A stretch of 53,869 nt of DNA from Bacillota bacterium. GTDB lineage: Bacteria > Bacillota > Clostridia > CAKSNL01 > HGM11501. The notes under the pieces are model-generated. The model did not search any database, had not been told where the DNA came from, and saw nothing but the letters and a program-made list of their open reading frames with translations. A program made the position numbers and the translations under genes. Where the stretch lies: contig JAUZPY010000002.1 in assembly GCA_030705805.1 (NCBI GenBank), positions 1 to 53,869 on the forward strand, written 5' to 3'. This document shows, one piece after another, positions 2,233-40,649 of this stretch. Position 1 is the stretch's first letter. Every line of letters begins with the position of its first letter.

Positions 2233-2348
2233 AATCTTTAAGAGTGGTACAGAGATGCCAACAAGGTTCAAGAAATAAAGCCTTTATGCTTTTGTGACAT
2301 AGTGTGTTTACGCTTTATAAGCCTTTGTTGGATGCAAAGGCTTTTTTT
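2233..2348 (+). promoter_or_regulatory. pyr leader with a PyrR-box-like hairpin and an intrinsic terminator (attenuator)
   Basis: CUUUAAGAGUGGUACAGAGAUGCCAACAAGG contains the CAGAGA loop on a UGGUA/UGCCA stem. The terminator AAGCCTTTG / CAAAGGCTT plus T7 sits at 2319-2348, just before the pyrC RBS. Confidence 0.5.
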
Positions 2349-2375
2349 GTACAGATAAAAAATCAGGAGGTAAAA

Positions 2376-3638
2376 ATGTCTATCGTTTTAAAGAATGCCA
2401 GCGTATATATAGAGGGCAGTTTTAAAAGTGTAGATTTGGCCGTTATAGATGGGCATATTTCTTTTATATCGAAAGAAACCGATATAAAGGATGCCCTTTC
2501 TTTTGATTTAAAAAATTGTGTTATTTTCCCCGGTCTTGTTGATGTTCATGTTCATCTTCGAGAGCCGGGCTTTTTATATAAAGAAACCATTAAAACGGGT
2601 ACCTTAGCGGCGGCATCGGGTGGATATACCGCAATTTGCTCCATGCCTAATTTAAACCCAGTTCCGGACAGCAAAGAAAACATAAAAGCGCAGCTGGACG
2701 CTATAAAAAAGGATGCGCTGATAAATGTTTACCCTTATTCTGCGATCACCAAAGGCGAACAGGGAAAAGAAATTGTAGACATAGATGAATTAAAAGATTA
2801 TGCAATAGCCTTCTCTGATGACGGCAGGGGCGTGCAGTCCGATGAAATTATGAAAAAAGCAATGATTAAAGCCGGCATCTGCGGGAAAATAATAGCTGCC
2901 CACTGCGAGGACAACAGCCTGCTAAACGGAGGATATATCCATGACGGTGAATATGCAAGAGTAAACAACCATAAGGGTATAAGCTCTGAAAGTGAATACA
3001 TGCAAATTGCCAGAGACTTGAAGCTGGCCGGGGAAACAAAATGCTTATATCATGTCTGCCACATATCCACTAAGGAAAGCGTGGATTTAATAAGGCAAGC
3101 TAAAGCAAAAGGCCTTAATGTTACTTGTGAAACAGCGCCTCATTATCTGACCTTAACAGACATGGACTTAAAGGAAGACGGAAGGTTCAAAATGAATCCG
3201 CCGTTAAGGTCTGAAGAAGACCACGCCGCTTTAATCAAGGGAATCCAGGACGGAACAATAGACATGATAGCAACAGATCACGCACCCCATTCCAAGGAAG
3301 AAAAAAGTAAGGGGTTAAAAGACAGTTTAATGGGAGTGACGGGTCTGGAAACTGCCTTTCCCATCTTGTATACACGCCTTGTAAAAAACAAAATTATATC
3401 ATTGGAAAAGCTGATTTCCCTGATGCACGACAATCCCGGAAAGCGGTTTGGCATAGCTAATCCTATAAGGGAAGGCGATATAGCCAATTTAACGGTGTTT
3501 GATTTGGAATCTGAATATAAAATAAATCCGTCAGAGTTTAATTCAAAAGGAAAAAGCACTCCTTTTGAAGGAGATGAAGTTTACGGAAAATGCCTGATGA
3601 CAATATGTAATGGAAATATAGTATGGAAGAATTTATAA
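2376..3638 (+). CDS. pyrC: Dihydroorotase
   Basis: AGGAGG at 2363-2368, then ATG 2376 (MSIVLKNA). Metal ligands DVHVHLREPG and a DHAPH motif. The ORF-track start at 2304 lies inside the leader terminator. Confidence 0.9.
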   Translation: MSIVLKNASVYIEGSFKSVDLAVIDGHISFISKETDIKDALSFDLKNCVIFPGLVDVHVHLREPGFLYKETIKTGTLAAASGGYTAICSMPNLNPVPDSKENIKAQLDAIKKDALINVYPYSAITKGEQGKEIVDIDELKDYAIAFSDDGRGVQSDEIMKKAMIKAGICGKIIAAHCEDNSLLNGGYIHDGEYARVNNHKGISSESEYMQIARDLKLAGETKCLYHVCHISTKESVDLIRQAKAKGLNVTCETAPHYLTLTDMDLKEDGRFKMNPPLRSEEDHAALIKGIQDGTIDMIATDHAPHSKEEKSKGLKDSLMGVTGLETAFPILYTRLVKNKIISLEKLISLMHDNPGKRFGIANPIREGDIANLTVFDLESEYKINPSEFNSKGKSTPFEGDEVYGKCLMTICNGNIVWKNL

Positions 3639-3674
3639 TATGCCTTCACAAAGCAATCAGGGAGGAGTGATAAA

Positions 3675-4406
3675 GTGAAGCAGAGTATTTTTACAGTAGA
3701 AAACAATGAATGTTTAGCAAAAAACACCTATGAACTTATTTTAAGCGGAGATACTTCCGACATAACAAAACCCGGACAGTTTGTAAACATTAAATTGGAC
3801 GGATGTTTTTTAAGGAGACCTATTTCGGTATGTGATTATGACGACAAAACCTTGACTTTGATATATAAGGTTGTGGGAAGAGGTACGGAATTTATGTCAA
3901 AGCTTACAAAGTGCGATAAGCTTGACATTCTTACAGGTCTTGGAAACGGCTACGACCTTAGCAAAAGCGGCGATACCCCTCTTTTAATCGGGGGCGGAGC
4001 GGGAATTCCTCCCATGTATAAATTGGCAAAGGAACTTATTAAAGAAGGTAAAAATGCAGCGGTAATTCTTGGCTTTAATGAAGAGCAGGAGCTTTTTTAT
4101 GAGGATAAATTTAAAGAGCTTGGCACTAAAGTTTATATTACAACAGCTGACGGCAGCAAAGGAATTAAAGGCTTTGTTACCGAGGCTATGAAAAACATAT
4201 CATATTCGTACTTTTATGTCTGCGGTCCCGAGCCGATGCTAAGAGCAGTATATAAGGAATCAATTGCAGAAGGTCAGTTCAGCTTTGAAGAAAGAATGGG
4301 CTGCGGCTTCGGTGCATGTATGGGGTGCAGCTGCAAAACAAAGTATGGAAACAAGCGAATTTGCAAGGATGGCCCGGTTCTTTTTAAGGAGGAAATTATA
4401 TGGTAG
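3675..4406 (+). CDS. pyrK: Dihydroorotate dehydrogenase B electron-transfer subunit
   Basis: GTG start after GGGAGGAG. Ferredoxin-reductase-like sequence with a C-terminal 2Fe-2S cysteine cluster, CGFGACMGCSC...C. Position is immediately before pyrD. Confidence 0.88.
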   Translation: MKQSIFTVENNECLAKNTYELILSGDTSDITKPGQFVNIKLDGCFLRRPISVCDYDDKTLTLIYKVVGRGTEFMSKLTKCDKLDILTGLGNGYDLSKSGDTPLLIGGGAGIPPMYKLAKELIKEGKNAAVILGFNEEQELFYEDKFKELGTKVYITTADGSKGIKGFVTEAMKNISYSYFYVCGPEPMLRAVYKESIAEGQFSFEERMGCGFGACMGCSCKTKYGNKRICKDGPVLFKEEIIW

Positions 4407-5311
4407 ATACCAAAATCACCTTAAGCGGATTGGCTTTAGATAACCCGATAATTCCCGCCAGCGGCACTTTTGGATATGGCTATGAATATGCAGAACTTTA
4501 CGATATAAATATGCTGGGGTCCTTTTCCTTTAAGGGCACAACAAAAGAGCCCAGATTCGGAAACCCTACGCCCAGAATAGCGGAATGCAGCGAAGGCATG
4601 ATTAATTCTGTGGGACTTCAAAATCCGGGCATTGAAAAGGTAATAGAGGAAGAACTCCCTAAACTAAAAAAATGCTTTAGTAAGAAAGTAATAGCAAATA
4701 TAAGCGGCTTTAGCATAGAGGAATATGTTCACTGCTGTGAGAAAATCGATGGGGAAAAACAAGTTGGTTTAATTGAAGTAAACATAAGCTGCCCTAATGT
4801 GCATAACGGAGGAATGGCCTTTGGTACGTCTCCGGAATCTGCCTTTGAAGTTACAAAAGCAATAAAAGAAATAACAAAAAAGCCTGTATATATGAAGCTG
4901 TCGCCGAATGTAACGGATATTGTTTCTATCGCAAAAGCTTGTGAAGAGGCCGGAGCGGACGGATTAAGTCTGATTAATACACTTCTTGGAATGAGAATAG
5001 ACTTGAAAACAAAAAAGCCAGTAATAGCAAATAAAATGGGAGGCTTTTCGGGAAGAGCAATTTTTCCGGTAGCACTTCGAATGGTTTACCAAGTATATGA
5101 GGCAGTAAGCATTCCAATTATCGGCATGGGCGGAATATCTAAAGCGGAAGATGTAATTGAAATGATGCTTGCAGGGGCAAGGGCCGTCCAAATAGGGGCG
5201 GAAAACCTTGTAAATCCTTATATATGTAAACAAATAATAGAAGACCTGCCCAAAACAATGGAAAAATATAAAATTGAAAGCTTGGAAAATATAGTTGGAG
5301 GTGCTCATTAG
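4400..5311 (+). CDS. pyrD: Dihydroorotate dehydrogenase B catalytic subunit (class 1B)
   Basis: 7-nt overlap with pyrK. Typical motifs GTFGYG, NISCPN and GGI near the C-terminus. Confidence 0.92.
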   Translation: MVDTKITLSGLALDNPIIPASGTFGYGYEYAELYDINMLGSFSFKGTTKEPRFGNPTPRIAECSEGMINSVGLQNPGIEKVIEEELPKLKKCFSKKVIANISGFSIEEYVHCCEKIDGEKQVGLIEVNISCPNVHNGGMAFGTSPESAFEVTKAIKEITKKPVYMKLSPNVTDIVSIAKACEEAGADGLSLINTLLGMRIDLKTKKPVIANKMGGFSGRAIFPVALRMVYQVYEAVSIPIIGMGGISKAEDVIEMMLAGARAVQIGAENLVNPYICKQIIEDLPKTMEKYKIESLENIVGGAH

Positions 5312-6009
5312 TGGGAAAAGACGTAATTATTGCGTGTGATTTTAACAGTAAAAATGAGGTTTTGAATTTTTTAGATAAATTCACAGAAGAAAAGCCTTTC
5401 GTTAAAATCGGAATGGAGCTGTTTTACAGCGAAGGACCGGACATCGTAAAAGAAATCAAAAAAAGAGGACATAAAATATTTCTGGATTTAAAACTGTGCG
5501 ACATTCCAAATACAGTAAAAAAGTCAATGAAAGTGTTAACGGAACTAAACGTTGACATGCTTAATTTGCACGCTTTTGGAACTATAGCTATGATGGAGGC
5601 GGCGATTGAAGGAATAACCCACGAGGATGGAACAAGACCGATTTTAATTGCGGTAACTTTACTTACTTCAACCAGCGAAGAAAGAATGAAAAGAGACCTT
5701 TTAATAAATGAGATGCTGCCGGATGTAGTGCTCCACTATGCAAATAATGCAAAAATTGCAGGACTGGACGGAGTAGTATGCTCCCCCCTTGAAGCGGGAC
5801 TTGTTAAAGAACGCTGCGGAAAGGATTTTATAACTGTAACACCCGGGGTTCGCTTTGCAGATGGGAAGCTTGGAGACCAGGTAAGAGTTACAACGCCCCA
5901 AAGGGCAAAAGAGTTAGGGTCTGATTATATAGTAGTGGGAAGACCCATTACGGAAAGCGAAGATCCGGTAGAAGCATATAGAAGATGCGTAAGAGAATTT
6001 ATTGGATAG
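5311..6009 (+). CDS. pyrF: Orotidine 5'-phosphate decarboxylase
   Basis: DLKLCDIPNT matches the DxKxxDIxxT signature. The GTG start overlaps the pyrD stop by 1 nt. Confidence 0.9.
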   Translation: MGKDVIIACDFNSKNEVLNFLDKFTEEKPFVKIGMELFYSEGPDIVKEIKKRGHKIFLDLKLCDIPNTVKKSMKVLTELNVDMLNLHAFGTIAMMEAAIEGITHEDGTRPILIAVTLLTSTSEERMKRDLLINEMLPDVVLHYANNAKIAGLDGVVCSPLEAGLVKERCGKDFITVTPGVRFADGKLGDQVRVTTPQRAKELGSDYIVVGRPITESEDPVEAYRRCVREFIG

Positions 6010-6020
6010 GAGTGTATTAG

Positions 6021-6653
6021 ATGGAAAAGTTAATTGCAGAAGATTTGCTGAAAATAGGAGCGGTATTTTTCAGACCGGGGGAACCATTTACATGGGCAAG
6101 TGGAATAAAAAGCCCGGTATATTGCGATAACCGGCTTACTCTTACAGCTCCAAAAGTAAGAACTGATGTTGAAAAAGGGTTGGCTAAGACAATCAAGGAC
6201 AATTATCCTGAGGTGGAAGTTTTGATGGGAACTTCAACTGCAGGAATTGCTCATGCGGCAATAACGGCGCACCTTTTAGATTTGCCTATGGGTTATGTAA
6301 GAAGCGGTGCTAAAGACCACGGCAGAGGAAATCAAATAGAAGGCAAATTGCTGCCCGGGCAAAAGGTTGTTGTGGTTGAGGACTTAATCTCTACCGGAGG
6401 AAGTGTAATCGAGGTAGTAGATGTGTTAAGGGAAGCAGGGGCAAAGGTACTTGGAATAGTAAGTATATTTACCTACGGCATGAAAAAAGGCATTGATAGA
6501 TTAGCTGAAGCCGGAGTGAAAAACATCAGCCTGACGAATTTTGATGTAATTGCAGAGGTAGCAGCTAATATAGGTTACATAAAACAGGAGGACATAAAGA
6601 AACTAATTGCTTTCAGAAACAATCCAAGCGATGAGAGCTGGATAGGAGCGTAA
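6021..6653 (+). CDS. pyrE: Orotate phosphoribosyltransferase
   Basis: PRPP-binding loop [13 protein letters not shown], plus operon context. Confidence 0.9.
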
Positions 6654-6654
6654 A

Positions 6655-7569
6655 ATGAGAAGCTTAATTAATATTCTTGACTTATCAACAGGGGAAATTG
6701 AAGAATTAATACAGGTGGCCAACGATATAATAAAAAACCCAAAAGCCTATAGCGATAAGTGCAGGGGTAAAAAGCTGGCCACGCTGTTTTTTGAGCCTTC
6801 TACCAGAACAAGGTTAAGCTTTGAAGCAGCAATGTATGAACTGGGAGGTAATGTGCTGGGCTTTTCGGAAGCGATGTCAAGTTCTGCAGCCAAAGGCGAA
6901 AGCGTGGCAGATACAATAAAAACAGTAAGCTGCTATGCAGACATTATAGCAATGCGTCATCCAAAGGAAGGCGCTCCGCTTGTTGCTTCTATGAACACAG
7001 AAATACCAATCATTAATGCCGGTGACGGCGGACACAATCATCCTACTCAGACTTTGGCGGATCTTTTAACAATTTACAGGGAAAAGGGCAGCCTTAATAA
7101 CTTTACCATAGGTTTTTGCGGAGACTTAAAATTCGGGCGTACCGTTCATTCCCTTATTGCGGCATTATCACGTTATGAGGGAATCAAGGTCGTACTGGTA
7201 TCTCCTAAGGAATTAAGGATTCCCAATTATGTAAAAACAGAACTGTTAGAAAAAAATAAAATTGAATTTACAGAGACAACTGAATTAGAGGAAGTAATTT
7301 CAGAACTTGACATTTTATATATGACGAGAGTTCAGAGAGAACGGTTTTTCAGCGAGGAAGAATATTTAAGACTAAAAGACTCCTATATATTAAATGAAGA
7401 AAAACTGATAAATGCAAAAAAAGACTTGGCAGTAATGCATCCATTGCCCAGAGTAAACGAGATATCAGTTTCCGTTGACAATGATGACAGAGCGTGCTAT
7501 TTTAAGCAGGTGCTTAACGGTAAGTATATAAGAATGGCGCTTATGCTTAAACTTTTGGAGGTAGAATAA
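6655..7569 (+). CDS. pyrB: Aspartate carbamoyltransferase catalytic chain
   Basis: Motifs [18 protein letters not shown] and HPLPR. Confidence 0.93.
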
Positions 7570-7991
7570 TGATGAATATTGATCCTATCAAAAACGGAAT
7601 TGTAATTGATCACATTAAAGCCGGAAAAAGTATGGAGCTTTATCATTATTTAAATCTGGAAAATCTGGACTGTTCCATAGCAATTATAAAAAATGCACCC
7701 AGCAAAAAGCTGGGCAAAAAGGACATTATTAAAATAGATGCCGCAATCAATATAGACCTTGACGTACTGGGTTATATAGATCCGGATATTACAATTGATA
7801 CTATTAAAGATGGTGTATTGGTGGATAAAAGGCACTTAGAGCTCCCTGAAATTTTGACAGGGGTAATAAAATGCAAAAATCCAAGATGTATAACATCGAC
7901 AGAACAGGAGCTTGCTCACACCTTTAAGCTGACCGACAGAGAAAATCGCGTATATAGATGTATTTATTGCGAAGCTGAATCCAACGAATAA
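7569..7991 (+). CDS. pyrI: Aspartate carbamoyltransferase regulatory chain
   Basis: Its ATG overlaps the pyrB stop. C-terminal zinc cluster CKNPRC ... CIYC. Confidence 0.88.
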   Translation: MMNIDPIKNGIVIDHIKAGKSMELYHYLNLENLDCSIAIIKNAPSKKLGKKDIIKIDAAINIDLDVLGYIDPDITIDTIKDGVLVDKRHLELPEILTGVIKCKNPRCITSTEQELAHTFKLTDRENRVYRCIYCEAESNE

Positions 7992-8210: not shown

Positions 8211-8238
8211 TTGACTATATTGTATTTTATGATATAAT
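8211..8238 (+). promoter_or_regulatory. Extended -10 promoter in front of the glycan locus
   Basis: TTGACT at 8211-8216, a 16-nt spacer, TGATATAAT ending at 8238. This leaves a ~165-nt untranslated leader before ATG 8410. Confidence 0.55.
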
Positions 8239-8409: not shown

Positions 8410-9528
8410 ATGGCAAGGATATTTCTTTCGTCTCCTCATATGGGTGGACGGGAAATGGGGTTCGTCAAAGAGGCGTTCGATACAAATTGGATTGCTCCTT
8501 TAGGTAAAAATGTAAACGAATTTGAAAGGGAAATGGCATCATACATAGGAATTGGACATGCGGCAGCATTGAGTGCAGGAACTGCGGCGCTTCATATGGG
8601 GTTAAAGGCTGCAGGAGTAAAACAGGGGGATATTGTTTTCTGCTCGGCTCTTACTTTTTCCGCAAGTGCTAATCCGATTATGTATGAAAAGGCCACTCCT
8701 ATTTTTATAGACAGCGAATATGAAACATGGAATATGAGCCCTAAAGCTTTGCGTAAAGCATTTAATAAATACCCAAACGTTAAAGCTGTGGTTGTTGTTG
8801 ATCTGTACGGACAAAGCGCAGACTGGGATGAGATACTTGATATATGTGGCGAACACAATGTACAGGTTATAGAAGATGCGGCTGAGGCATTGGGGTCTAC
8901 ATATAAAGGGAAAAAATGCGGCAGCTTTGGCAAGTATGGCATTTTGTCATTTAACGGCAATAAGATTATAACAACCTCCGGAGGAGGGATGCTTCTGTCT
9001 GATGATGAAGAAAGAATACAAAAAGTCAGATTTTGGTCAACCCAATCAAGAGAAAAAGCTAGGCATTATCAGCATGAGGAGCTGGGTTATAATTACCGTA
9101 TGAGCAACATTGTGGCAGGTATTGGCAGAGGTCAGATGTTTGTTTTAGACGATAGGGTTGCAAAGAAAAGAGAAATATTTGAAAAGTATAAAAAAGCATT
9201 TGAAGATATAGATGATATTGAAATGATGCCAAGATTTGAAAAAGGAGAGTCTAACTGCTGGCTTTCCTGTATGACAATAAAACAAAACAGCAAGGTTTCG
9301 CCCTTAGATATTATGATTGCACTGGAGAATTCTGATATAGAGTCCAGACCTATCTGGAAACCTATGAATTTGCAGCCATATTATAAAAAATATGATTTTA
9401 TTACAGAAAGCACACAAATTTCTGTTGCAGAGGACATTTTTAACCGCGGCGTATGCCTTCCCAGCGATACGAAGATAACCGAGGAAGATCAGCAAAGGGT
9501 AATTGATATAATAAAAAAATTATTTTAA
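8410..9528 (+). CDS. DegT/DnrJ/EryC1/StrS-family sugar aminotransferase, EpsN/PglE-like (4-aminotransferase of a UDP-4-keto-6-deoxy-HexNAc)
   Basis: The N-terminus IFLSSPHMGGREMGFVKEAFDTNWIAPLG closely resembles B. subtilis EpsN as I recall it. The PLP lysine sits in SFNGNKIITT. Confidence 0.8.
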   Translation: MARIFLSSPHMGGREMGFVKEAFDTNWIAPLGKNVNEFEREMASYIGIGHAAALSAGTAALHMGLKAAGVKQGDIVFCSALTFSASANPIMYEKATPIFIDSEYETWNMSPKALRKAFNKYPNVKAVVVVDLYGQSADWDEILDICGEHNVQVIEDAAEALGSTYKGKKCGSFGKYGILSFNGNKIITTSGGGMLLSDDEERIQKVRFWSTQSREKARHYQHEELGYNYRMSNIVAGIGRGQMFVLDDRVAKKREIFEKYKKAFEDIDDIEMMPRFEKGESNCWLSCMTIKQNSKVSPLDIMIALENSDIESRPIWKPMNLQPYYKKYDFITESTQISVAEDIFNRGVCLPSDTKITEEDQQRVIDIIKKLF

Positions 9529-9543
9529 ATTTTGGAGATCGCT

Positions 9544-10302
9544 ATGGATAATGAAAACTTATACGGAACTAAGGCTGTTCAAGTTGATCTTTTGGAAATG
9601 ATGAGCTATCTGCACAGCTTTTGTAAAGAACATGATATAAAATACACTCTTGGGGGAGGATCTCTTATCGGAGTTGTACGCCATGGTGGTTTTATACCAT
9701 GGGATGATGATATTGATCTGATGTTTGAACGGAAAGAGTATGATAAGTTTGTTACGCTGTTTGAACAATATGGTGATAAGCAGTATAAAATTATTAAAAA
9801 CATATGGCTTTCCTGTGTTACTTTTTTGGAGAATGTAAAACACAACAAGATAGAAAACATGACAAGATGTGTAGATTTATTTGTGTTTGACGATGTTCCC
9901 AAAGGAACTGCAACCAGAAGGTTTAAGATATTTTTCTTAAGGCTCTTGCAGGGAATGATAAAAGATAAGCCTGAGTATCAGAGTTATGGCTTTGCCGGAA
10001 AGATTCTTTCTTTTGCTACATGGGCTTTTGGGAGGCTTTTTACAAAAAAATTTAAACTCAAAATATATAACCGAATATCGCAGTGGGGAGAAAGCGGGTC
10101 CGGCTTTATAACTATATACAACGATTCCTTTAAAAATTTAAAAATTATTCATTCATCTACGATACTTGAGAGCTATAGTGAGATGCCATTTGACGGATTA
10201 ATGCTTTATGTGATGAGCGGAGCTCATAGGTATTTAGAAACCCGCTACGGAGATTATATGAAGCTGCCGCCTATAGAACAACGGATTCCCCAACATATAT
10301 AA
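9544..10302 (+). CDS. LicD-family phosphotransferase (phosphocholine / polyol-phosphate transferase family)
   Basis: GGSLIGVVRHGGFIPWDDDIDLMF signature. GGAG lies 6 nt before ATG 9544. The ORF-track TTG at 9532 is less likely. Confidence 0.8.
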   Translation: MDNENLYGTKAVQVDLLEMMSYLHSFCKEHDIKYTLGGGSLIGVVRHGGFIPWDDDIDLMFERKEYDKFVTLFEQYGDKQYKIIKNIWLSCVTFLENVKHNKIENMTRCVDLFVFDDVPKGTATRRFKIFFLRLLQGMIKDKPEYQSYGFAGKILSFATWAFGRLFTKKFKLKIYNRISQWGESGSGFITIYNDSFKNLKIIHSSTILESYSEMPFDGLMLYVMSGAHRYLETRYGDYMKLPPIEQRIPQHI

Positions 10303-10318
10303 GTACGGAGGAGAGAAA

Positions 10319-11026
10319 ATGATTTTTGCAGGAGTATTGGCGGGAGGCAAAGGAACAAGACTTGAAAGCTCAATTCCCAAACAATTTATTGAGATTGAAG
10401 GCATTCCGCTGATAGTAAGAACGCTAAAAACCTTTTTATCTGTAGAAAGCTTTAATAAAGTAATTGTGTCAATGAATAAAGACTGGGTGGATTATTGCCT
10501 GAATTTGTTTTCCGAATATGATATGCCCATGGATAGGTTGGAGGTTATTTTGGGAGGAGAAACGCGTTTTGAATCCCTTTATAATGTAACCTTAAAGGCG
10601 GCAAAGCTTAGCGGCGGAAAAGATGATATAATTGTCACCCATGACTGTGCAAGACTTTTTGTTTCGAAAAGAATTTTAGAGGACAATATAAGGGATATTG
10701 AAAATTACGATGCGGTGACGACTGCTATTCCTACAATTGATACTATACTGCATACTCCTGACGGCAAGGTGAGTACCGATGTTCCGGTCAGAAAAGAGCT
10801 GTGGCTTGACCAGGGCCCCCAGTCATATAAAGTGGCTCAGTTTTTGGAAATGGCGGACAAGCTTACTTCTATGGAACGTGAAAAATATATGGAAGCGGGC
10901 AAGCTTTACATTGATTCGGGACTTAAAGTCGGACTTGTTATGGGAGATCGATACAACTTCAAAATCACAAATGATATAGATTTAAAATATGCCGCATTTT
11001 TGTTGAGAGAGGGGGCGGTCCAGTGA
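10319..11026 (+). CDS. IspD/TarI-family cytidylyltransferase
   Basis: N-terminal FAGVLAGGKGTRLESSIPKQF nucleotide-binding signature. Size is ~235 aa. Confidence 0.8.
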   Translation: MIFAGVLAGGKGTRLESSIPKQFIEIEGIPLIVRTLKTFLSVESFNKVIVSMNKDWVDYCLNLFSEYDMPMDRLEVILGGETRFESLYNVTLKAAKLSGGKDDIIVTHDCARLFVSKRILEDNIRDIENYDAVTTAIPTIDTILHTPDGKVSTDVPVRKELWLDQGPQSYKVAQFLEMADKLTSMEREKYMEAGKLYIDSGLKVGLVMGDRYNFKITNDIDLKYAAFLLREGAVQ

Positions 11027-12066
11027 AATGTGTTGTGGTTGGCGACATATTCATAACGCCTGAAATGATGGAGAAAGCAATGGGCTTTTACCATGATAGA
11101 TTCAGAGAAGTAAAGAGCTTTTACTTCGGTAATAAAGACAGACAGAACATGCGAGATGTAGTAAAGACTATAGAAATGGGAGGCCCTTATTCCGTTAAGC
11201 CGCCGGACGGTGTATTGGAAGAACTGTCAGATGCTGATGTTTTAATGGTACACCTGTGTCCTGTAACCAAAGAGATGATACATGCGGCAAAAAAACTAAA
11301 GGTAATACTGTGTAACAGAGGCGGTATTGAAAATATAGACATTGATGAAGTAAACAGCTGTAAAATACCCATATTAACAAACCCGGCGCATAATGCAAAT
11401 GCTGTTGCGGAATACACGATCGGATTGATTTTTAACGAGCTCAGAAATATTTCCAGAGCTTATGTTTCGTTACGGGAGCACTGTTGGAGAGAACATTTCC
11501 CCAATTCGGAAAACATTAAAGAGCTTAAAAATATGACAGTCGGCATTATTGGCTACGGTGCGGTAGGGCGGCTGGTAACAGAAAAACTTCGTGGGTTTGA
11601 CTGCCGCGTTATCATATATGATCCTTATGTTGACAATGATGACGACAGCGGGAACCCTAATATTAGATTTGTACCTATGGATTATCTTTTGAGGGAATCT
11701 GACATTGTTACAATGCATGCTCGTTCTGTAAATAAAAAGCCTATAATAGGCGAAAAAGAATTAAAGCTTATGAAGGACGATGCATATCTTATAAATACTT
11801 CCCGTTCCTATATGCTTGATATGGATGCACTTTATACTGCATTAAAAAATAATTGGATTAAGGGTGCTGCCGTAGATGTTTTCCCGGTTGAGCCTTTGCA
11901 AAAAGATGAGCCTCTACTTACACTGGATAATATTACATTGACAAACCATAGAGGCGGCGATACCTTGAATGCGTATTCCGATAGTCCGCTGATGATGCTT
12001 AGGGAAGCTGAAAAATTATTTGAAAACGAAACGCCAAGATATTGGTACAATAAAAATATGATTTGA
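11023..12066 (+). CDS. D-isomer-specific 2-hydroxyacid dehydrogenase family protein
   Basis: The GTG start overlaps the upstream stop (GTGA). NAD fold GIIGYGAVGRLV ... YDP. Catalytic R/E/H context NTSRS, VDVFPVEP, LTNHRGG. Confidence 0.8.
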   Translation: MKCVVVGDIFITPEMMEKAMGFYHDRFREVKSFYFGNKDRQNMRDVVKTIEMGGPYSVKPPDGVLEELSDADVLMVHLCPVTKEMIHAAKKLKVILCNRGGIENIDIDEVNSCKIPILTNPAHNANAVAEYTIGLIFNELRNISRAYVSLREHCWREHFPNSENIKELKNMTVGIIGYGAVGRLVTEKLRGFDCRVIIYDPYVDNDDDSGNPNIRFVPMDYLLRESDIVTMHARSVNKKPIIGEKELKLMKDDAYLINTSRSYMLDMDALYTALKNNWIKGAAVDVFPVEPLQKDEPLLTLDNITLTNHRGGDTLNAYSDSPLMMLREAEKLFENETPRYWYNKNMI

Positions 12067-12376
12067 TTGTAATGTAAGCTATTTAAGAAGAAAGTGTGCT
12101 AAAGAAGCAAAAATATCTTAAGTAAATAGATGCAATGCCTATTCTGCTTTTTAGAAGCTGATTTAAGCAGATAAAAACTCTGCTTTTATGTGAGAAGTTT
12201 TTAGGTAGAAGCTTATTTTTAAAGGAGTATAAGCCTCAAGGCTAAAAGATTATCATAAAATGTTAATACGGGAATTATACGAATCCGTCTCCGGCGGGAA
12301 TAGAGTTAGTTTTGTAATACCAATGAAAACGGAAAGCGTATGAAACCTTGAATGATATAAAAAAGGACGAATATAT

Positions 12377-13015
12377 ATGTACCGGAAATTTTTTAAAAGA
12401 TTAATTGACATAATCTGCGCTCTTTTGGCGGTATTGGTGTTTTCCCCTCTGTACATACTTGTAGCACTTCTTGTTCGTATAAAACTTGGATCACCCATAT
12501 TGTTTAAACAGGAACGCCCGGGGCTAAATGAAAAAATTTTTAAACTTTATAAGTTTCGAACCATGACCGATTCAAGGGATGAATCCGGAAATCTGCTTTC
12601 CGACGAAATTAGAATGACTTCTTTTGGCAGGCTGCTGCGGGCTACGAGCTTAGATGAGCTACCGGAGGCTTTTAATATTTTAAAAGGTGACATGAGCGTT
12701 GTTGGACCAAGGCCGCTGTTGCCCGAATATTTACCTTACTATAATGAAATGGAAAAACATAGACATGATGTTAGGCCTGGCTTAACAGGGCTTGCGCAGA
12801 TAAATGGAAGAATTGAAATCAGTTGGGAAGAAAGGTTTTATTATGATCTTGAATATCTTAAAGGTATTACATTTATAAGCGATTGCAAAATTATAGTTTT
12901 AACCTGTTGGAAGGCTTTTGTAAAACATGAAGGAGTAGGACAAACCGGGGAGGCTCCTGAAAGTTTACATATTATTAGGCAGGAGCAAAGTCAAAAGATA
13001 GAATATAAAGCATGA
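12377..13015 (+). CDS. Small monotopic phosphoglycosyl transferase (PglC / EpsL / WbaP-C-terminal type), priming enzyme
   Basis: KRLIDIICALLAVLVFSPLYILVAL re-entrant helix, KFRTM, and LDELPEAFNILKGDMSVVGPRP. Confidence 0.88.
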   Translation: MYRKFFKRLIDIICALLAVLVFSPLYILVALLVRIKLGSPILFKQERPGLNEKIFKLYKFRTMTDSRDESGNLLSDEIRMTSFGRLLRATSLDELPEAFNILKGDMSVVGPRPLLPEYLPYYNEMEKHRHDVRPGLTGLAQINGRIEISWEERFYYDLEYLKGITFISDCKIIVLTCWKAFVKHEGVGQTGEAPESLHIIRQEQSQKIEYKA

Positions 13016-13096
13016 ACGAAAGTTGTTTTCGACATTAAAGATATACTAAGAGGAAATACAATATTATTAATGTAAAAAATTTTAGGGCGTGATAAA

Positions 13097-14146
13097 TTGA
13101 AGTTGCAAATAATATCTATAGATCAGTCAGACAGATGGGATAACATAGTAAAATCATTTAAAGACTATGATGTTTATTATTTAAGTGGATATGTTAAGGC
13201 GTTTGAACTTCACGGTGATGGTGAGCCGATGCTTTTTTATTTTGATAATGGAAGCACAAGAGCTATAAATGTTGCCATGAAACGTGATATTGCAAAAGAT
13301 GAAAATTTTGTTGGAAAAATACCCGAAAACACATATTTTGATTTATCAACACCTTATGGCTATGGCGGTTTTATTATAGAAGGTGATGATATTAAATCTT
13401 TAAACGATTCTTACGGTGAATATTGCCAGAAAAATAATATAATATCAGAATTTGTGAGGTTTAATCCGGTCATTAATAATTGCAGAAATGCAGCAGAAAC
13501 ATATGAAACTGTATGTTTGGGTAATACCGTATGCATAGATACTACAAATGATGATATTATCTGGGATAATTTTATCAGCCAGAACAGAAATAAAATTAGA
13601 AAAGCAAAAAAATCAGGGCTTAAGGTTTTTTGGGGAAGAGATGAATGGTTAATCGATGAATTTATTAAAATATATAATGAGACTATGAAAAGAGATAACG
13701 CTACCAGTTATTATTATTTTAATAAAGAATTTTATCAAAGCGTGTTTAATGATTTAAAATATAACTCAATGTTTTTTTATACAAAATTAAATGATGAAAT
13801 TATTGCTATCTCTATTATTATGTATTGTAATAATAAAATGCATTATCATCTTTCGGCTTCAAAAAAAGAATATCAACACTTAGCACCAACAAATTTACTT
13901 CTTTATGAATGTGCTTGCTTTGGAGCAAGTATTGGCTTTAAAAGCTTACATCTTGGCGGTGGCGTTGGTTGTAAAGATGATAGCTTGTATATATTTAAAA
14001 AAGGGTTTAATCGTAATGGTGATAAAGAATTTTATATTGGAAAAAAAATATTCAATAGCGATTTGTATGAGCATTTATTGAAAATAAGAGAAAGTGAAGC
14101 TTCCTTTAATCGAGAAACATCATTCTTTCCGGCTTACAGAGGCTGA
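13097..14146 (+). CDS. FemAB-like / GNAT-fold acyl- or aminoacyl-transferase
   Basis: TTG start. The two-lobed size (~350 aa), STPYGYGG, the HYHLSAS...APTNLLLYE block and the LHLGGG tail resemble FemAB-related GNAT proteins. Assignment by eye. Confidence 0.5.
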   Translation: MKLQIISIDQSDRWDNIVKSFKDYDVYYLSGYVKAFELHGDGEPMLFYFDNGSTRAINVAMKRDIAKDENFVGKIPENTYFDLSTPYGYGGFIIEGDDIKSLNDSYGEYCQKNNIISEFVRFNPVINNCRNAAETYETVCLGNTVCIDTTNDDIIWDNFISQNRNKIRKAKKSGLKVFWGRDEWLIDEFIKIYNETMKRDNATSYYYFNKEFYQSVFNDLKYNSMFFYTKLNDEIIAISIIMYCNNKMHYHLSASKKEYQHLAPTNLLLYECACFGASIGFKSLHLGGGVGCKDDSLYIFKKGFNRNGDKEFYIGKKIFNSDLYEHLLKIRESEASFNRETSFFPAYRG

Positions 14147-18122: not shown

Positions 18123-18848
18123 ATGCCTTTTAGCTATCGTGAATACGAGAATATGATAGAGCTTCTTTGTACTAACGGCTATAAAATAACGGGATATAAT
18201 AACTGGCAGGATTATGAAAAGTGCGTTATATTCAGACACGATATTGACTTTTCTATTGAAAAGGCAGTTGAATTTGCCAAGATAGAAAAAAGATTTAATG
18301 TAAATAGTACATATTTTACTTTGGTTTCAAGCAACTTTTACAATGTTTTTTCGGAAAAAAGCTGTTTGCTTCTTAATGAAATCATCTCTTCAGGCCATGA
18401 AATAGGGCTTCATTTTGATGAAAAGAGATATCCTGAAAGTTATGGAAATCCCGATAAGATAAAAGAAAAAGTTCTTTTCGAAAAAGATGTTTTGGAAAGA
18501 GCAATAGGGCAGGAAATTAAGACCCTTTCCATGCATCGGCCCAGTAAGGAGATATTGGCTTCCAATTTGCATATCCCCGGAATGATAAACAGCTATGGAA
18601 ATACCTTTTTTAAAGAGTTTAAATATTTGTCGGATTCCAAATGCAGCTGGAGAGAGCCGGTTCTTGATATAATAAAGGAAAACAAGTATAATAGACTCCA
18701 TATTCTTACTCATTCCTTCTGGTACAATAAAAAAGAAGAGAAGGTTAATAAAATGCTTGAGGATTTTGTAAATTCTGCCTCAAATGAAAGATATGAAGAT
18801 TTAAACGACAATTTTTCTGACTTAAAAGAAATCTTGCCCCTAAGATAG
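18123..18848 (+). CDS. Polysaccharide-deacetylase-like (divergent CE4 / NodB fold) protein
   Basis: FRHDIDFS ... STYF ... GHEIGLHFDE ... SMHRP pattern, resembling divergent deacetylases seen in O-antigen loci. By eye. Confidence 0.5.
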   Translation: MPFSYREYENMIELLCTNGYKITGYNNWQDYEKCVIFRHDIDFSIEKAVEFAKIEKRFNVNSTYFTLVSSNFYNVFSEKSCLLLNEIISSGHEIGLHFDEKRYPESYGNPDKIKEKVLFEKDVLERAIGQEIKTLSMHRPSKEILASNLHIPGMINSYGNTFFKEFKYLSDSKCSWREPVLDIIKENKYNRLHILTHSFWYNKKEEKVNKMLEDFVNSASNERYEDLNDNFSDLKEILPLR

Positions 18849-25537: not shown

Positions 25538-25668
25538 TTTCTTTTTAAAGCTGTACTTTAACTGTATTGCAGTTGTCTTTATGAGGCAGCACAATTGTAT
25601 GGCAAGCGAGTATTTTGAAAAGTTCTCATCTGCTGTGCTAAACATTGCTTCCTGAAAGGTCGGAAAAC

Positions 25669-27222
25669 ATGTCGAGAATTGAAAACTCAGCTAGAAATCT
25701 GTCAGCAAGTGCTGTCAGGGGGATACTTGTAATAATACTGAACTTTATTACCAGAACAGTATTTATTAATGTCCTGGGAAAACGATACCTTGGAATCAGC
25801 GATTTGTTTACAAATGTTATTTCAGTATTATCCTTGGCGGAGCTTGGTATAGGATCTGCAATAGTGTTTAATTTGTATAAGCCTATAGCAGAGAAGGATA
25901 TTCCGCAAATCAGGCTTCTGGTTAAGTTTTATAGAACCTGCTATCAATTTATAGGATACTTTATTTTAGCAGTAGGTTTATGCCTTATGCCGTTTTTAAA
26001 GTACATAATTAAAGATGATGTGAGTTTTATTAATGCAAATTTGATATTTTCCCTTTATCTTATAAGAACGGTATTTTCATATTTATTTTTTGCGTATAAA
26101 ACTTCACTGCTGACAGCAAGCCAACAAGAATACAAGCTCACAATAATAAGCACTGTTTTTGCAGTTATTTCAAATTTAGCGCAGATTGCAGTATTAGTGC
26201 TTTTTAAAAACTTTACGTTATATGTCTTTATTGTTATATTAATTACAATACTTCAAAATTTTGTCGGGGCAAGACAAACCGATAAGGAATATCCTTTTAT
26301 TAAAGAAAAAGTTGATGATAAGCTTACTAAGGAAGAACGGAAAGAAATATTTAAAAATTGTTATGCTTTAGTAATTTATAATATAAACGAAGTTGTAGTA
26401 AATGCTACAGACAATATTGTTCTTTCGACCTTTATAGGCCTTGAAATTGTCGGTATGTACTCAAACTATGTTATACTCTATGGTGCTATTAAGGATATAC
26501 TTCAAAAGTTATATAATGCAATGATTCCAAGCATTGGAAACCTTCATGCAGAAGGAGATGTTGAGCACGAACATAAGCTTTTTAATTCTCTTAACTTTAT
26601 GACTTCTTTTTTGTTTGGAATAGGAGCCGTTGGATTTGCCGTAGTAGGAAACGAGCTTATTCATATATGGATAGGCGATAAATATATTATTGATCAATCT
26701 TTTGCAGTAATAATGGCTGTAAATTTATACATAACCGGAATGGACAAAATACTGTCAGTTTTCCGAAATGCAATGGGACTTTTTCAGCAGGCGAAATACC
26801 GTCCTCTTGCAGGAATAATTATCAATTTGGTATTTTCAATCATAGCAGTTCGTTATATGGGCGTTCATGGAGTTGTGCTTGGTACAATTGTTGCAAATGT
26901 AACTACATTCATGTGGTATGATCCTTATATTATTTATAGGGAAGTATTTAAGAGATCAGCTTGGGAGTATTATAAAAAGAACATACAATACGGCTTGCTG
27001 GTTATAGCTTGCGGAGTGCTTTCATATTATATCTGTAATTTGATAGGCGGAATAAATCTGGGCTACTTATTATTGCATTCAATAATATGTGTAATTATTA
27101 CCGGAGGCGCTTTTTACGCCATATATGGCAGGACAGAGGACTTTAAATATATTATAAATATGGCAAAACATGTTTTAAAAAAAATATTTAAAAAATTTAG
27201 AAGAAAACAGCCAGAAGTTTAA
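25669..27222 (+). CDS. Polysaccharide flippase (Wzx, MOP superfamily)
   Basis: ATG 25669 (MSRIENSARN, a typical Wzx N-terminus). About 12-14 TM segments. Confidence 0.8.
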   Translation: MSRIENSARNLSASAVRGILVIILNFITRTVFINVLGKRYLGISDLFTNVISVLSLAELGIGSAIVFNLYKPIAEKDIPQIRLLVKFYRTCYQFIGYFILAVGLCLMPFLKYIIKDDVSFINANLIFSLYLIRTVFSYLFFAYKTSLLTASQQEYKLTIISTVFAVISNLAQIAVLVLFKNFTLYVFIVILITILQNFVGARQTDKEYPFIKEKVDDKLTKEERKEIFKNCYALVIYNINEVVVNATDNIVLSTFIGLEIVGMYSNYVILYGAIKDILQKLYNAMIPSIGNLHAEGDVEHEHKLFNSLNFMTSFLFGIGAVGFAVVGNELIHIWIGDKYIIDQSFAVIMAVNLYITGMDKILSVFRNAMGLFQQAKYRPLAGIIINLVFSIIAVRYMGVHGVVLGTIVANVTTFMWYDPYIIYREVFKRSAWEYYKKNIQYGLLVIACGVLSYYICNLIGGINLGYLLLHSIICVIITGGAFYAIYGRTEDFKYIINMAKHVLKKIFKKFRRKQPEV

Positions 27223-27241: not shown

Positions 27242-28486
27242 TTGGATAAGAGCTTTTCCGATATGCTTTATTTGTTTGGATGCGGGGCCTCGGGCAAAGA
27301 AGAACAGATTCAAGGGCCACTTAATATAAAAGAGATATACTGCCTTTCTTTGCAGCAAGGCATATGGCCTATTGTATATGTGGCAATAAAACCTTATTTA
27401 GAAAAAGCAGATATAAATAAGCAGGATTATATAAATTTACAAAAGCGTTTTGATGGGATCATTGCAAAAAACGTCCGCAAAACAGCCTTTACTGAAGAAA
27501 TAATATTTAAAATGGAAGAACAGGGAATTAAGTGCTGCCTTTTAAAAGGTACGGCAGTAGCTGATTTTTATAAATACCCGGAGACGAGAATATCCGGAGA
27601 TACAGATATATTTATTAAAAAAGAAAACGAAAAAAAGGCAGTTTTATTACTCCAAGAATGTGGTTATACCGTATTTTCAAGGACAAAAAATCTTCACTGT
27701 TTTGAGGCGGAGCACCCAATAGGAGGGAAGCTTGAAGTTCACGTTGTTTTAAACCCCAAGGATATTGATGATATCTTTTTTAATAAAAAGGTAAGCTATA
27801 CTGAAGACTTTATAATAATGGAAAATGAGATTTCAACACTTGGCGTTAATGACGGACTGCTGTATTTAACTGCCCACTTCATAAAGCACTTTGTTAAAGC
27901 CGGTGCCGGAGTCCGCCAAATTATGGATCTTCTTTTGTATATGAAACATTATCAAGAAAAGATTGATTGGGATAGTTATAATAAACTTATGGAGGAACTA
28001 AATTATAAAAAGTTAATAAACCTCCTTATGGCAATTGGAGTGAAATACTGGGACATGGAATTTGAAGGAATCATTGGGGATGAGCCTTTGATTGATGACC
28101 TTTTGAATGATATTAAAGCCGGGGGGATTTTTGGGGGAAGGGAAGAGGGGAGACATAAAGTTTACATAGAAATTTCTAAGCAAAAATCAAAACTTACAGA
28201 AGAACAATTTAGCAAATATAGAAGAAAGCATATGGGAATTACTTTATGTGAAAAATTTATTCCTTCAAAAGATAGAATGGAGAAGCGTTATAATTTTGTA
28301 AAAAAGCATGGCATCCTTTTACCGGTTGCCCATATAATGCGCTGGGCTAGTTTAATAGCAAAAATTATTACACGGAAGAAATCCATAAAAGAATATTTTT
28401 CGGAGGAGGAGAATTCGAAATTCAGTCCTGCTTTGGAAACTCGTATGAAGCTTATAGAAAATCTGGGGATTATCGGCCATCAATAA
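27242..28486 (+). CDS. Uncharacterised nucleotidyltransferase family protein (NTP_transf_5-like)
   Basis: LLKGTAVADFYKYPETRISGDTDIFI ... LEVHV pattern. TTG start after GGAGAGAGGGG. Confidence 0.6.
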   Translation: MDKSFSDMLYLFGCGASGKEEQIQGPLNIKEIYCLSLQQGIWPIVYVAIKPYLEKADINKQDYINLQKRFDGIIAKNVRKTAFTEEIIFKMEEQGIKCCLLKGTAVADFYKYPETRISGDTDIFIKKENEKKAVLLLQECGYTVFSRTKNLHCFEAEHPIGGKLEVHVVLNPKDIDDIFFNKKVSYTEDFIIMENEISTLGVNDGLLYLTAHFIKHFVKAGAGVRQIMDLLLYMKHYQEKIDWDSYNKLMEELNYKKLINLLMAIGVKYWDMEFEGIIGDEPLIDDLLNDIKAGGIFGGREEGRHKVYIEISKQKSKLTEEQFSKYRRKHMGITLCEKFIPSKDRMEKRYNFVKKHGILLPVAHIMRWASLIAKIITRKKSIKEYFSEEENSKFSPALETRMKLIENLGIIGHQ

Positions 28487-28602
28487 ATTTTACTAAAAAC
28501 AACAAATAAGCAAAGAAACCGTGCTTTAATGATTAAAAAATTAAGGAACCTGCTTATGATGTGATGTATAATAGGTTCAACAGATAATAAGGAGGACTAT
28601 AT

Positions 28603-29991: not shown

Positions 29992-30030
29992 TTGCATTAG
30001 CAGTCAAAAAGGAATAGAAAAAAGTGAATT

Positions 30031-30075
30031 CACCTCCCATGACAGATATTCTGCCATAGGAGGTGCTTTTCGTTT
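30031..30075 (+). terminator. Terminator after the GH4 gene
   Basis: Stem CACCTCCCATG / CATAGGAGGTG followed by CTTTTCGTTT. Confidence 0.6.
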
Positions 30076-30239
30076 AATGTCCGGTTTTAGTGGTATGCCC
30101 AAAATTAGAGGAATAGCTATAGGACGGATACTTATTAATTATTACAAATATATTTTTTTTCAAAAGCTATTGACAATTAATCCCTTGTACTGTATTATCT
30201 ATAGTAGTACAGATAGTACACTTGAAAGAGGCGAGTAAT

Positions 30240-31355: not shown

Positions 31356-31528
31356 GCAAAGTATAATATAACAATAAAGAACGTATATTTAGAGGAAGGT
31401 ACTTCCTCCGTATAAAATAGGCGGAGGTTTGATAAAGGAAAAAAATTTAAAGCTTATAAATATCAGCACAGAAAAAATTTAATAAACACCTATTGATCTT
31501 TTTGCTTATAAATGAAAGGAGAAAAATT

Positions 31529-33598: not shown

Positions 33599-33605
33599 AA
33601 AAAGT

Positions 33606-33640
33606 AGTGGGGGGAAGCACTTATAAGTGCTTCCCCCACT
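33606..33640 (+). terminator. Strong GC hairpin after the SLH gene (weak T-tract)
   Basis: Stem AGTGGGGGGAAGCAC / GTGCTTCCCCCACT. It is immediately followed by a TTGACA -35 box for the next gene. Confidence 0.5.
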
Positions 33641-33718
33641 ATTGACAAATGATAAAGTTTTGTTATATAATTACATATAATAGTATTATTATCAGAATTT
33701 TTCAAAGGAGTGATATGG

Positions 33719-36986: not shown

Positions 36987-36996
36987 GTTGTTCCCC

Positions 36997-38412: not shown

Positions 38413-38448
38413 TTTTCACCCTTCTTTCGGGTCAGAAAGCCTTCCCCG

Positions 38449-40573: not shown

Positions 40574-40649
40574 GGGAGCATAGCTCAGCTGGGAGAGCAT
40601 CTGCCTTACAAGCAGAGGGTCATAGGTTCGAGCCCTATTGTTCCCACCA
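40574..40649 (+). tRNA. trnV: tRNA-Val (anticodon TAC)
   Basis: Hand-folded cloverleaf. Acceptor GGGAGCA/TGTTCCC, anticodon stem TCTGC/GCAGA with loop CTTACAA, T-loop TTCGAGC, encoded CCA. Confidence 0.93.

Follow-up and report, generated by a model that had tools for sequence, protein, structure and literature searches.

On Gram-positive surfaces, phosphodiester-linked polyols (ribitol, glycerol, or arabinitol phosphate) are main determinants of antigenicity and phage reception, and tarI/tarJ or tagD genes are the usual basis for predicting them. In the TarI/TarJ systems of S. aureus, S. pneumoniae, and B. subtilis W23, a reductase and an IspD-fold cytidylyltransferase are encoded side by side and feed a phospho-polyol transferase. 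The same two-enzyme logic is followed by Bcs1/Acs1 and AbpA/AbpB, wherein an IspD-like cytidylyltransferase is joined by a reductase of the short-chain dehydrogenase/reductase (SDR) type. In the CDP-arabinitol route of pneumococcal AbpA/AbpB, the ketose phosphate is reportedly activated first and the resulting CDP-ketose reduced second. Here we describe a locus that resembles these pairs in a 53,869-nucleotide stretch of a Clostridia genome (contig JAUZPY010000002.1, positions 1–53,869, assembly GCA_030705805.1), the whole of which is hereafter called the window. Three adjacent genes of this stretch code for a LicD-family phosphotransferase, an IspD/TarI-type cytidylyltransferase (CT), and a dehydrogenase (DH) of the D-2-hydroxyacid dehydrogenase (2-HADH) family. 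With a probability of about 0.6, we read this trio as a donor-and-transfer module for a CDP-polyol, by which the polysaccharide of the downstream genes would receive a phosphodiester-linked polyol, either as a substituent or as a teichoic-acid-like unit.

A possible precedent, and the nearest one, lies in the pneumococcal genes gtp1-gtp2-gtp3, compared here by gene-product names only. Together with wchX, these genes accompany glycerol-2-phosphate in the capsules of pneumococcal serogroups 15 and 23 (Bentley 2006, PMC1391919), and they are arranged in the order wchX-gtp1-gtp2-gtp3 (PMC5581491). The deposited annotation describes gtp1 as a dehydrogenase, gtp2 as a nucleotidyl transferase, gtp3 as a phosphotransferase, and wchX as a glycerol phosphotransferase (PMC3493582). 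What these genes have in common with the window is that one capsule locus holds a dehydrogenase, a nucleotidyl transferase, and a phosphotransferase and serves a polyol in phosphodiester linkage (PMC1391919, PMC3493582). The order of the genes differs, however, being LicD-CT-DH in the window and dehydrogenase-nucleotidyl transferase-phosphotransferase in pneumococcus, and the 54-kb window carries no separate WchX-like transferase. Gtp1 may be 2-HADH-like, Gtp2 IspD-like, Gtp3 LicD-like, and WchX TagF-like, which would put the Gtp proteins in the same three Pfam families as the trio. In work by Wang et al. from 2010, Gtp1 reportedly reduces dihydroxyacetone to glycerol, Gtp3 is said to form glycerol 2-phosphate, and Gtp2 is said to form CDP-2-glycerol. 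The paper on the glycerol-2-phosphate exopolysaccharide (EPS) of L. plantarum contains no gene data.

A mammalian system offers a further parallel. ISPD is an IspD-fold CDP-ribitol synthase that works with the LicD-domain transferases FKTN and FKRP (PMC4873967). FKRP is a CDP-ribitol-dependent ribitol-phosphate transferase and resembles the window LicD by sequence. The mammalian system differs in that no dedicated reductase gene stands alongside and in that the acceptor is a protein O-mannosyl glycan. No description of a LicD, IspD, and 2-HADH trio was found in the open-access literature.

All three open reading frames (ORFs) of the trio (Table 1) are present, as are the motifs cited for them in the original prediction: IPWDDDIDLMF in LicD; LAGGKGTRLESSIPKQF, the N-terminal CTP-binding motif AGGxGxR...PKQ(F/Y), in CT; the GxGxxG sequence GIIGYGAVG and the catalytic triad R261/E290/H309 in DH; and a GTGA overlap between the last two genes. 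The GTG start of DH is supported by conservation of K2, G7, and D8 at the N terminus in 29 homologues. CT is preceded by GGAGGAG and DH by GAGGGGG, and a GGAG lies six bases 5′ of the LicD ATG at 9544, for which an in-frame TTG at 9532 is an alternative.

The evidence that carries our reading is the recurrence of CT and DH as a pair. One genome per GTDB species was scanned with an alignment of the DH clade, and the loci were annotated by tblastn. A CT gene lies upstream of DH in 24 of the fetched loci, most of them in metagenome-assembled genomes (MAGs) of Clostridia; the two genes are direct neighbours in most, and LicD or class II aldolase-family genes intervene in five. This total joins the scan with the neighbourhoods of four database relatives of DH, in which CT is directly upstream of DH or nearby. 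Overlap of start and stop codons or direct abutment is found in at least eight other loci (L003, L005, L021, L026, L033, L035–L037, and L039). In nearly all 24, there are one to three genes for LicD (250–645 amino acids), a TagF-like Glyphos_transf gene, or both. The recurrence and the nearby transferases bear out the original prediction, which had proposed a make-activate-transfer module and a search of gene neighbourhoods as its check. Six of these loci (L001, L004, L010, L016, L017, and L036) add an ABC exporter resembling TagGH, which is a hallmark of teichoic-acid-type polymers. No cultured carrier of the CT-linked module was found; Anaerostipes butyraticus bears an aldolase-linked form instead.

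Locus L003 is the most instructive of the set, and its DH is the nearest neighbour of the window DH in a distance tree (60% identity). The gene order there is tRNA synthetase, CT, DH (with a 4-nucleotide overlap), Glyphos_transf, and glycosyltransferases including GT2, and no LicD is present in its 10.8 kb. Because L003 combines CT and DH with a TagF-like enzyme and lacks LicD, CT and DH appear sufficient for donor formation, and LicD is dispensable for this step in a close relative. LicD and TagF-like enzymes thus look like alternative users of the donor made by CT and DH. As judged from gene order and sequence, CT and DH are a conserved module with an exchangeable transferase.

The classical pairings were also encountered. 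When plasmids were searched by tblastn for Gtp-like EPS genes, we recovered TarI-TarJ pairs and one CT-SDR pair but no 2-HADH pair, and L089 and L090, both from lactic-acid-bacterial plasmids, were the only loci with a TarJ-type partner. The TarI-TarJ pair on these plasmids has the same gene order as CT-DH in the window, and the SDR reductase of the CT-SDR pair, which is on an L. plantarum plasmid, has no detectable similarity to the window DH. Thus, as had been proposed, the reductase partner is neither of the TarJ type (zinc-dependent alcohol dehydrogenase) nor of the Bcs1/AbpB type (SDR). Compared with TarI/TarJ, the window has a reductase of the 2-HADH fold in place of a zinc-dependent medium-chain dehydrogenase, a CT without GQTPQ, DRN, and AVDT, a LicD transferase in place of TarK/TarL, and a cofactor that is probably NADH rather than NADPH.

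CT matches Pfam IspD with 121.3 bits (E 7e-35). It scores 225.4 bits against NCBIfam NF001183 (ribitol-5-phosphate cytidylyltransferase; cut-off 166), which is a ‘subfamily’ model and not an equivalog, and its top matches in the Protein Data Bank (PDB) are four TarI proteins from S. pneumoniae, B. subtilis, S. aureus, and Listeria (151–155 bits), with 83 bits for the best IspD. These scores place CT clearly with TarI rather than with true IspD. On a contig that bears LicD-TagGH-CT-DH, a separate IspD-YgbB (IspF) pair is located 3.5 kb away (L004:12536–13704), which confirms that the CT linked to DH is an additional paralogue rather than the enzyme of the methylerythritol phosphate (MEP) pathway.

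All 2-HADH-linked CTs were aligned with solved TarI proteins and with TarJ-linked TarI from lactic-acid-bacterial plasmids. The motif HD(S/A)VRP of TarJ-linked TarI is HDCAR(P/L) in the 2-HADH-linked proteins (HDCARL in the window), AVDT is xTTS (AVTT), GQTPQ is DQGPQ (likewise DQGPQ), GGxDRN is GGx(T/S)RF (GGETRF), and D(A/S)CK is EAG(R/K) (EAGK). The window CT does not carry the motifs common to all TarJ-linked TarI compared, and by this alignment the 2-HADH-linked CTs are a subfamily of their own, the DQGPQ type. The SDR-coupled CT from the L. plantarum plasmid differs yet again at these positions. Because TarJ-, 2-HADH-, and SDR-linked CTs each differ, the motifs seem to track the reductase partner and probably the substrate, which weakens a simple ‘CDP-ribitol’ call. 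The Thr of TPQ lines the substrate site in E. coli IspD.

DH matches the Pfam families 2-Hacid_dh_C (PF02826; 170.9 bits, E 2e-50) and 2-Hacid_dh (PF00389; 55.9 bits). Its AlphaFold model (pLDDT 90.8) finds 1wwk as its best Foldseek match (TM-score 0.73–0.82), and the same entry is its best match by sequence. DH is therefore predicted to have a canonical 2-HADH fold; structure prediction and Foldseek confirmed the fold and gave no hint of specificity. The Asp in IYDPY after GxGxxG suggests NAD(H) as the cofactor, following the established Rossmann-fold rule.

DH is below the cut-off for every NCBIfam equivalog. Identification with SerA was rejected on the basis of its scores (TIGR01327, 183.9 bits versus a cut-off of 454; NF008759, 150.9 versus 404) and because the Arg-Ser of the phosphate site is absent: VHLCP aligns with VRSAT/VRSKP, with His-Leu in place. 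PdxB was rejected as well (85 bits versus a cut-off of 434, and 63 versus 687). Hence, the appeal of the original prediction to SerA and PdxB as guides to the substrate is not supported. DH shares with SerA and PdxB the 2-HADH fold and the Arg/Glu/His triad, but its clade has arginines of its own and other genomic partners.

More than 3,000 relatives of DH are found in databases, the best being 64% identical, and where a source is named it is a Clostridia MAG. Among 1.84 billion representatives searched, roughly 1,400 proteins score E ≤ 1e-30, and a compact clade stands out, made up of seven clusters (50% identity) that share 43% identity or more with DH, after which the score falls sharply. 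Its near-invariant signature comprises H77-x-C-P, R99-G-G-x-E-N, H123-N124, R141, R145, W155, and H232-x-R234, and toward the C terminus N258-T-x-R261, E290, H309-R310-G-G-D-T, and Y318. Extra arginines are therefore conserved across the clade at positions 99, 141, 145, 234, and 310. R99 sits just ahead of two residues whose backbone binds carboxylate in canonical 2-HADHs, R234 stands where these enzymes have Pro, and R99, N124, and R234 are all absent from the canonical 2-HADHs recovered by the same genome scan. On this evidence the clade is a compact, uncharacterised 2-HADH group distinct from SerA and PdxB. The names of ten cluster representatives from the family are all generic, and the one cultured source is Christensenella tenuis, whose homologue is on a 2.3-kb contig with no informative context. 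In MAG records, NCBI lists DH relatives under names that include ‘3-phosphoglycerate dehydrogenase’, and a CT relative is entered as ‘MEP cytidylyltransferase’.

Dehydrogenases with the same signature also occur without CT. The gene order is DeoR, DH, and RhaD-like aldolase in Anaerostipes butyraticus and a relative, and DH, RhaD-like aldolase, and glycerophosphodiester phosphodiesterase (GDPD) in several Bacteroidales. These aldolases score 317 and 279 bits with NCBIfam NF002963, passing its cut-off of 170. Pairs of DH and RhaD-like aldolase are located at L028:7989–9850, L038, L041:8001–10658, L045, L047, and L048, and they have the look of a hitherto undescribed operon for the catabolism of a ketose or polyol phosphate. 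In a Blautia MAG, DH stands between two FGGY kinase genes preceded by a UgpC-like ABC ATPase, and in two Bacillota MAGs it is followed by an aldolase-like gene, an FGGY kinase, and a mutase resembling phosphoglucomutase/phosphomannomutase (PGM/PMM). Such neighbours (XylB-like FGGY kinase, PGM/PMM-like phosphomutase, and aldolase-like or UgpC-like genes) are found at L022:129–6554, L025:8001–12985, and L034:8001–11925. The joint occurrence of kinase, mutase, dehydrogenase, and aldolase suggests a route that moves phosphate along a polyol.

An FGGY kinase gene adjoins more distant full-length relatives (31–39% identity) in over 15 loci. On haloarchaeal megaplasmids, a class II fructose-bisphosphate aldolase, an FGGY kinase, and a DH relative follow one another. 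In a Haladaptatus megaplasmid (L008:4480–8029), aldolase, FGGY kinase, and a full-length, 33%-identical 2-HADH form an operon of overlapping genes, and similar arrangements occur on haloarchaeal or alphaproteobacterial plasmids. Vagococcus salmoninarum (L052:5192–12615) encodes RpiB-like and TIM-like proteins, an FGGY kinase, a 39%-identical 2-HADH, DhaKLM, and an SDR; this locus resembles erythritol or tetrulose-phosphate catabolic clusters, with the 2-HADH standing where EryB is expected. Taken together, the extra arginines and the sugar-phosphate neighbours are good circumstantial evidence that the DH group acts on phosphorylated ketoses or polyols and not on 2-oxo acids.

LicD matches Pfam PF04991 over its full model (positions 1–227 of 227) with 112.8 bits (E 3e-32; gathering score 22.6). 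The only sequence relative in the PDB is FKRP, and that match is short, covering 44 residues around the acidic DxD motif, where IPWDDDIDLMF aligns with IPWDYDVDLGI of FKRP. The closest relatives of the window LicD are 36–48% identical and adjoin DegT and a small Bac_transf gene; their other neighbours include a TagD-like/GFO fusion with an aminotransferase in one locus and a phosphoenolpyruvate (PEP)-mutase/nucleotidyltransferase fusion in another. The locus of the closest relative (L092:2296–7700) has the same set of DegT, FemAB-like, Bac_transf, and LicD genes as the window, which may mean that this LicD subfamily goes with one particular amino sugar as the initiating residue. An attempt to name the donor from these relatives was abandoned because they accompany at least three different donor pathways. 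To our knowledge, all characterised members of the LicD family (LicD1/2, FKTN, FKRP, and Mf1) transfer from CDP-alcohols. The context of the window gene, with an adjacent CT and with relatives near other CDP or CMP donor genes, is consistent with transfer of a phospho-alcohol from a CDP-alcohol donor. Moreover, because L003 has CT and DH without LicD, and because LicD relatives stand beside unrelated donor genes, LicD would be a transferase and not an enzyme of donor synthesis.

We therefore favor a TarI/TarJ-like pathway in which a member of the 2-HADH clade, acting on sugar or polyol phosphates rather than on 2-oxo acids, would take the place of TarJ. With NADH as the reductant, DH would convert a phosphorylated ketose drawn from central or pentose metabolism to the corresponding polyol phosphate by reduction at its keto group. 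The translationally coupled CT, whose enzyme class is evident from its sequence matches, would then join this polyol phosphate to CTP to form a CDP-polyol. From the known chemistry of its family, LicD is expected to move the phospho-polyol onto a sugar hydroxyl with release of CMP. The substrate class, the order of the steps, and the acceptor are the parts of this scheme that we infer. A conservative guess for the polyol is ribitol 5-phosphate, which is favored by the nearest characterised relatives of CT. About equally likely is a different polyol phosphate (another pentitol phosphate, a polyol 1-phosphate, or a glycerol phosphate isomer), which is favored by the CT motif changes and by the aldolase, kinase, and mutase neighbours of the DH clade. 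Of the two options left by the original prediction, a non-orthologous route to a CDP-polyol is the better fit.

A broader proposal can be made only tentatively. The DH clade may be a group of unrecognised ketose- or polyol-phosphate 2-HADHs that, with CTs of the DQGPQ type, make a novel CDP-donor (for a pentitol 1-phosphate, the ‘wrong’ enantiomer of ribitol or glycerol phosphate, or L-arabinitol or xylitol phosphate) decorating teichoic-acid-like polymers of gut Clostridia, with the same clade underlying an undescribed catabolic route (GDPD, FGGY kinases, PGM-like mutase, and RhaD-like aldolase) in Bacteroidales, Anaerostipes, and Blautia. We regard this proposal as less likely than not.

Several observations weigh against the pathway as drawn. 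The TarI motif replacements are found in 24 of 24 2-HADH-linked CTs, that of the window included, which speaks against ribitol 5-phosphate, and given these changes the CT substrate may not be D-ribitol 5-phosphate. In three CT-linked loci, a gene of the AraD-like class II aldolase/epimerase family lies between LicD and DH (L001:9241–9996, L019:5318–6040, and L023:7366–7944). These inserts score 109 bits, far under the AraD cut-offs, and may supply the ketose phosphate in their loci, a hint that this compound does not come from central metabolism in every case; the window has no counterpart. If Gtp1–3 are homologous to the trio, the published chemistry differs from ours, with dihydroxyacetone being reduced to glycerol and a LicD-like enzyme making glycerol 2-phosphate. 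It is also conceivable that activation precedes reduction, as discussed below.

The pneumococcal precedent leads to the alternative that the trio is a distant homologue of the CDP-2-glycerol pathway, in which case LicD would be an enzyme of donor synthesis and the polymer would carry glycerol 2-phosphate. The distinct CT motifs would suit such a substrate other than ribitol 5-phosphate, and the annotated gtp products match the trio in kind, with the wchX glycerol phosphotransferase in addition (PMC3493582). No Streptococcus locus is among the best 80 of the GTDB scan, nor did a named hit come up in the protein searches. Nevertheless, direct transfer of the Gtp scheme fits badly, because L003 shows that a LicD-type enzyme is not needed for the donor in the nearest lineage of the window and because the window offers no second LicD or TagF-like gene to serve as the separate transferase. 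Furthermore, the pneumococcal route as reported starts from unphosphorylated dihydroxyacetone and has its third enzyme phosphorylate glycerol, whereas the arginines of DH and the phospho-sugar neighbourhoods of its clade favor a phosphorylated substrate over free dihydroxyacetone. The CDP-alcohol chemistry noted above for LicD proteins also speaks for a transferase. On balance, we consider this alternative unlikely.

Still less probable is a reversed order of steps, wherein CT activates a ketose phosphate to a CDP-ketose that DH then reduces to the CDP-polyol. AbpA/AbpB, as described above, provide a precedent, and CT does precede DH and is translationally coupled to it. Pathways of two steps that parallel the formation of CDP-ribitol have also been noted (Bentley 2006, PMC1391919). 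However, dehydrogenases with an identical signature stand beside kinases, aldolases, and a mutase in the absence of CT, which implies that the substrate is a free phospho-sugar or phospho-polyol and not a nucleotide-linked one.

The second option of the original prediction was that DH yields a phospho-hydroxy acid, such as a phosphoglycerate or phospho-tetronate, which is activated and then attached by LicD as a phosphodiester. SerA and PdxB do belong to the DH family, the best NCBIfam and PDB matches are labelled phosphoglycerate dehydrogenase, the FGGY and class II aldolase families include acid-sugar enzymes, and weak matches to 3-oxo-tetronate 4-phosphate decarboxylase were seen. Yet DH is far under the SerA and PdxB cut-offs and has His-Leu for the Arg-Ser of SerA, CT is nearest to polyol-phosphate cytidylyltransferases, and 3-phosphoglycerate is already a central metabolite for which a dehydrogenase would be needless. 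The neighbours of same-signature dehydrogenases (GDPD, PGM-like phosphohexomutase, RhaD-like class II aldolase, and XylB-like kinases) are sugar or polyol enzymes. This option has accordingly lost most of its ground, and we hold it to be very improbable. That DH is not the partner of CT at all and makes a D-2-hydroxy acid (D-lactate or D-glycerate) to N-acylate an amino sugar made by DegT, as the DegT gene immediately upstream and the FemAB-like acyl/aminoacyl transferase gene downstream might suggest, can practically be dismissed, because CT-DH adjacency and overlap are kept where no DegT is nearby (for example in L003, L004, and L005) and the canonical 2-HADH substrate-loop residues are replaced in the DH clade.

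Table 1. Coordinates of the trio and of other features in the window.
Feature	Coordinates	Strand	Remark
LicD-family phosphotransferase	9544-10302	+	Predicted to transfer a phospho-alcohol from a CDP-donor to a glycan
CT, IspD/TarI-type cytidylyltransferase	10319-11026	+	Predicted maker of a CDP-activated polyol phosphate
DH, D-2-hydroxyacid dehydrogenase fold, NAD-type	11023-12066	+	Predicted ketose-phosphate reductase giving a polyol phosphate
GTGA, overlap of DH GTG start and CT TGA stop	11023-11026	+	Translational coupling
Promoter-like site, sigma-70 type	8211-8238	+	TTGACT-16-TATAAT with TG, upstream of DegT-LicD-CT-DH
DegT/LegC/PseC-type sugar aminotransferase	8410-9528	+	Context, outside the donor module
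Small PglC-like polyprenyl-phosphate sugar-phosphate transferase	12377-13015	+	Pfam Bac_transf, 204 bits; first glycan assembly gene; context
Pyrimidine biosynthesis operon (dihydroorotase, pyrD, pyrF, pyrE, pyrB, pyrI)	2304-7991	+	Upstream of the trio; housekeeping context
[FeFe]-hydrogenase maturases, HydF and two radical SAM proteins (hydE/F/G)	35805-39501	-	Housekeeping context
tRNA genes	653-725, 40574-40646, 47142-47214	- (47142-47214)	

The trio follows a DegT gene that matches Pfam DegT_DnrJ_EryC1 with 330 bits and the LegC-family model with 380 bits, under the cut-off of 420. It ends 15 nucleotides before the LicD ATG and is probably co-transcribed with LicD. The promoter-like site upstream matches the consensus at 11 of 12 positions, in a region whose total of such sites is not above shuffled expectation. 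A 310-nucleotide non-coding gap (12067–12376) separates DH from the PglC-like gene, and a weak hairpin plus T-run (GCAGATAAAAACTCTGCTTTTAT) is located in it at about 12168–12190, not called by the terminator scan. An Rfam scan of the window returned three tRNAs only and nothing in this gap.

Downstream, the PglC-like phosphoglycosyl transferase gene adjoins a gene for a FemAB-like protein (aminoacyl/acyl transferase; 12377–14146). Genes for GT4 glycosyltransferases, a UDP-sugar 6-dehydrogenase, and a WbqC-like protein follow, and further glycan genes encode a GFO/IDH/MocA oxidoreductase, a hexapeptide acetyltransferase, a second DegT, and a Wzy-like polymerase. Between 16808 and 22365, the UDP-sugar 6-dehydrogenase, WbqC-like, GFO/IDH/MocA, hexapeptide acetyltransferase, and DegT genes make up a set typical of 2,3-diacetamido-2,3-dideoxy-uronic acid synthesis. 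Two ORFs of the polysaccharide cluster have no Pfam match (18123–18848, 241 amino acids; 25645–27222, 525 amino acids), the larger of which may encode the missing flippase or another membrane protein. Past the cluster, at 27242–35710 and 40999–43530, are genes for an NTP_transf_5 protein, a GH4 glycosidase, a glucuronyl-esterase-like protein, and three SLH-domain proteins; the polymer may be a secondary cell-wall polysaccharide to which SLH proteins are anchored. The hydE/F/G genes in this part of the window mark the organism as an anaerobe of the Clostridia type. Nowhere in the 54-kb window is there a second LicD, a TagF-like enzyme, a class II aldolase, an FGGY kinase, or a phosphomutase.

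The module thus appears to be a variant of CDP-polyol synthesis and transfer that is widespread in uncultured gut Clostridia and that takes its reductase from an unexpected family. A CT-DH pair of this kind would be missed or mis-annotated by rules based on tarI/tarJ or tagD, and it would mark teichoic-acid-like polymers in many uncultured gut Clostridia. Should the Gtp proteins prove homologous, loci that have CT and DH but lack LicD would be a reason to re-examine the role published for the LicD-like Gtp3. The DH substrate, once defined, would give a function to a compact 2-HADH clade and might reveal a matching catabolic pathway in other gut anaerobes.

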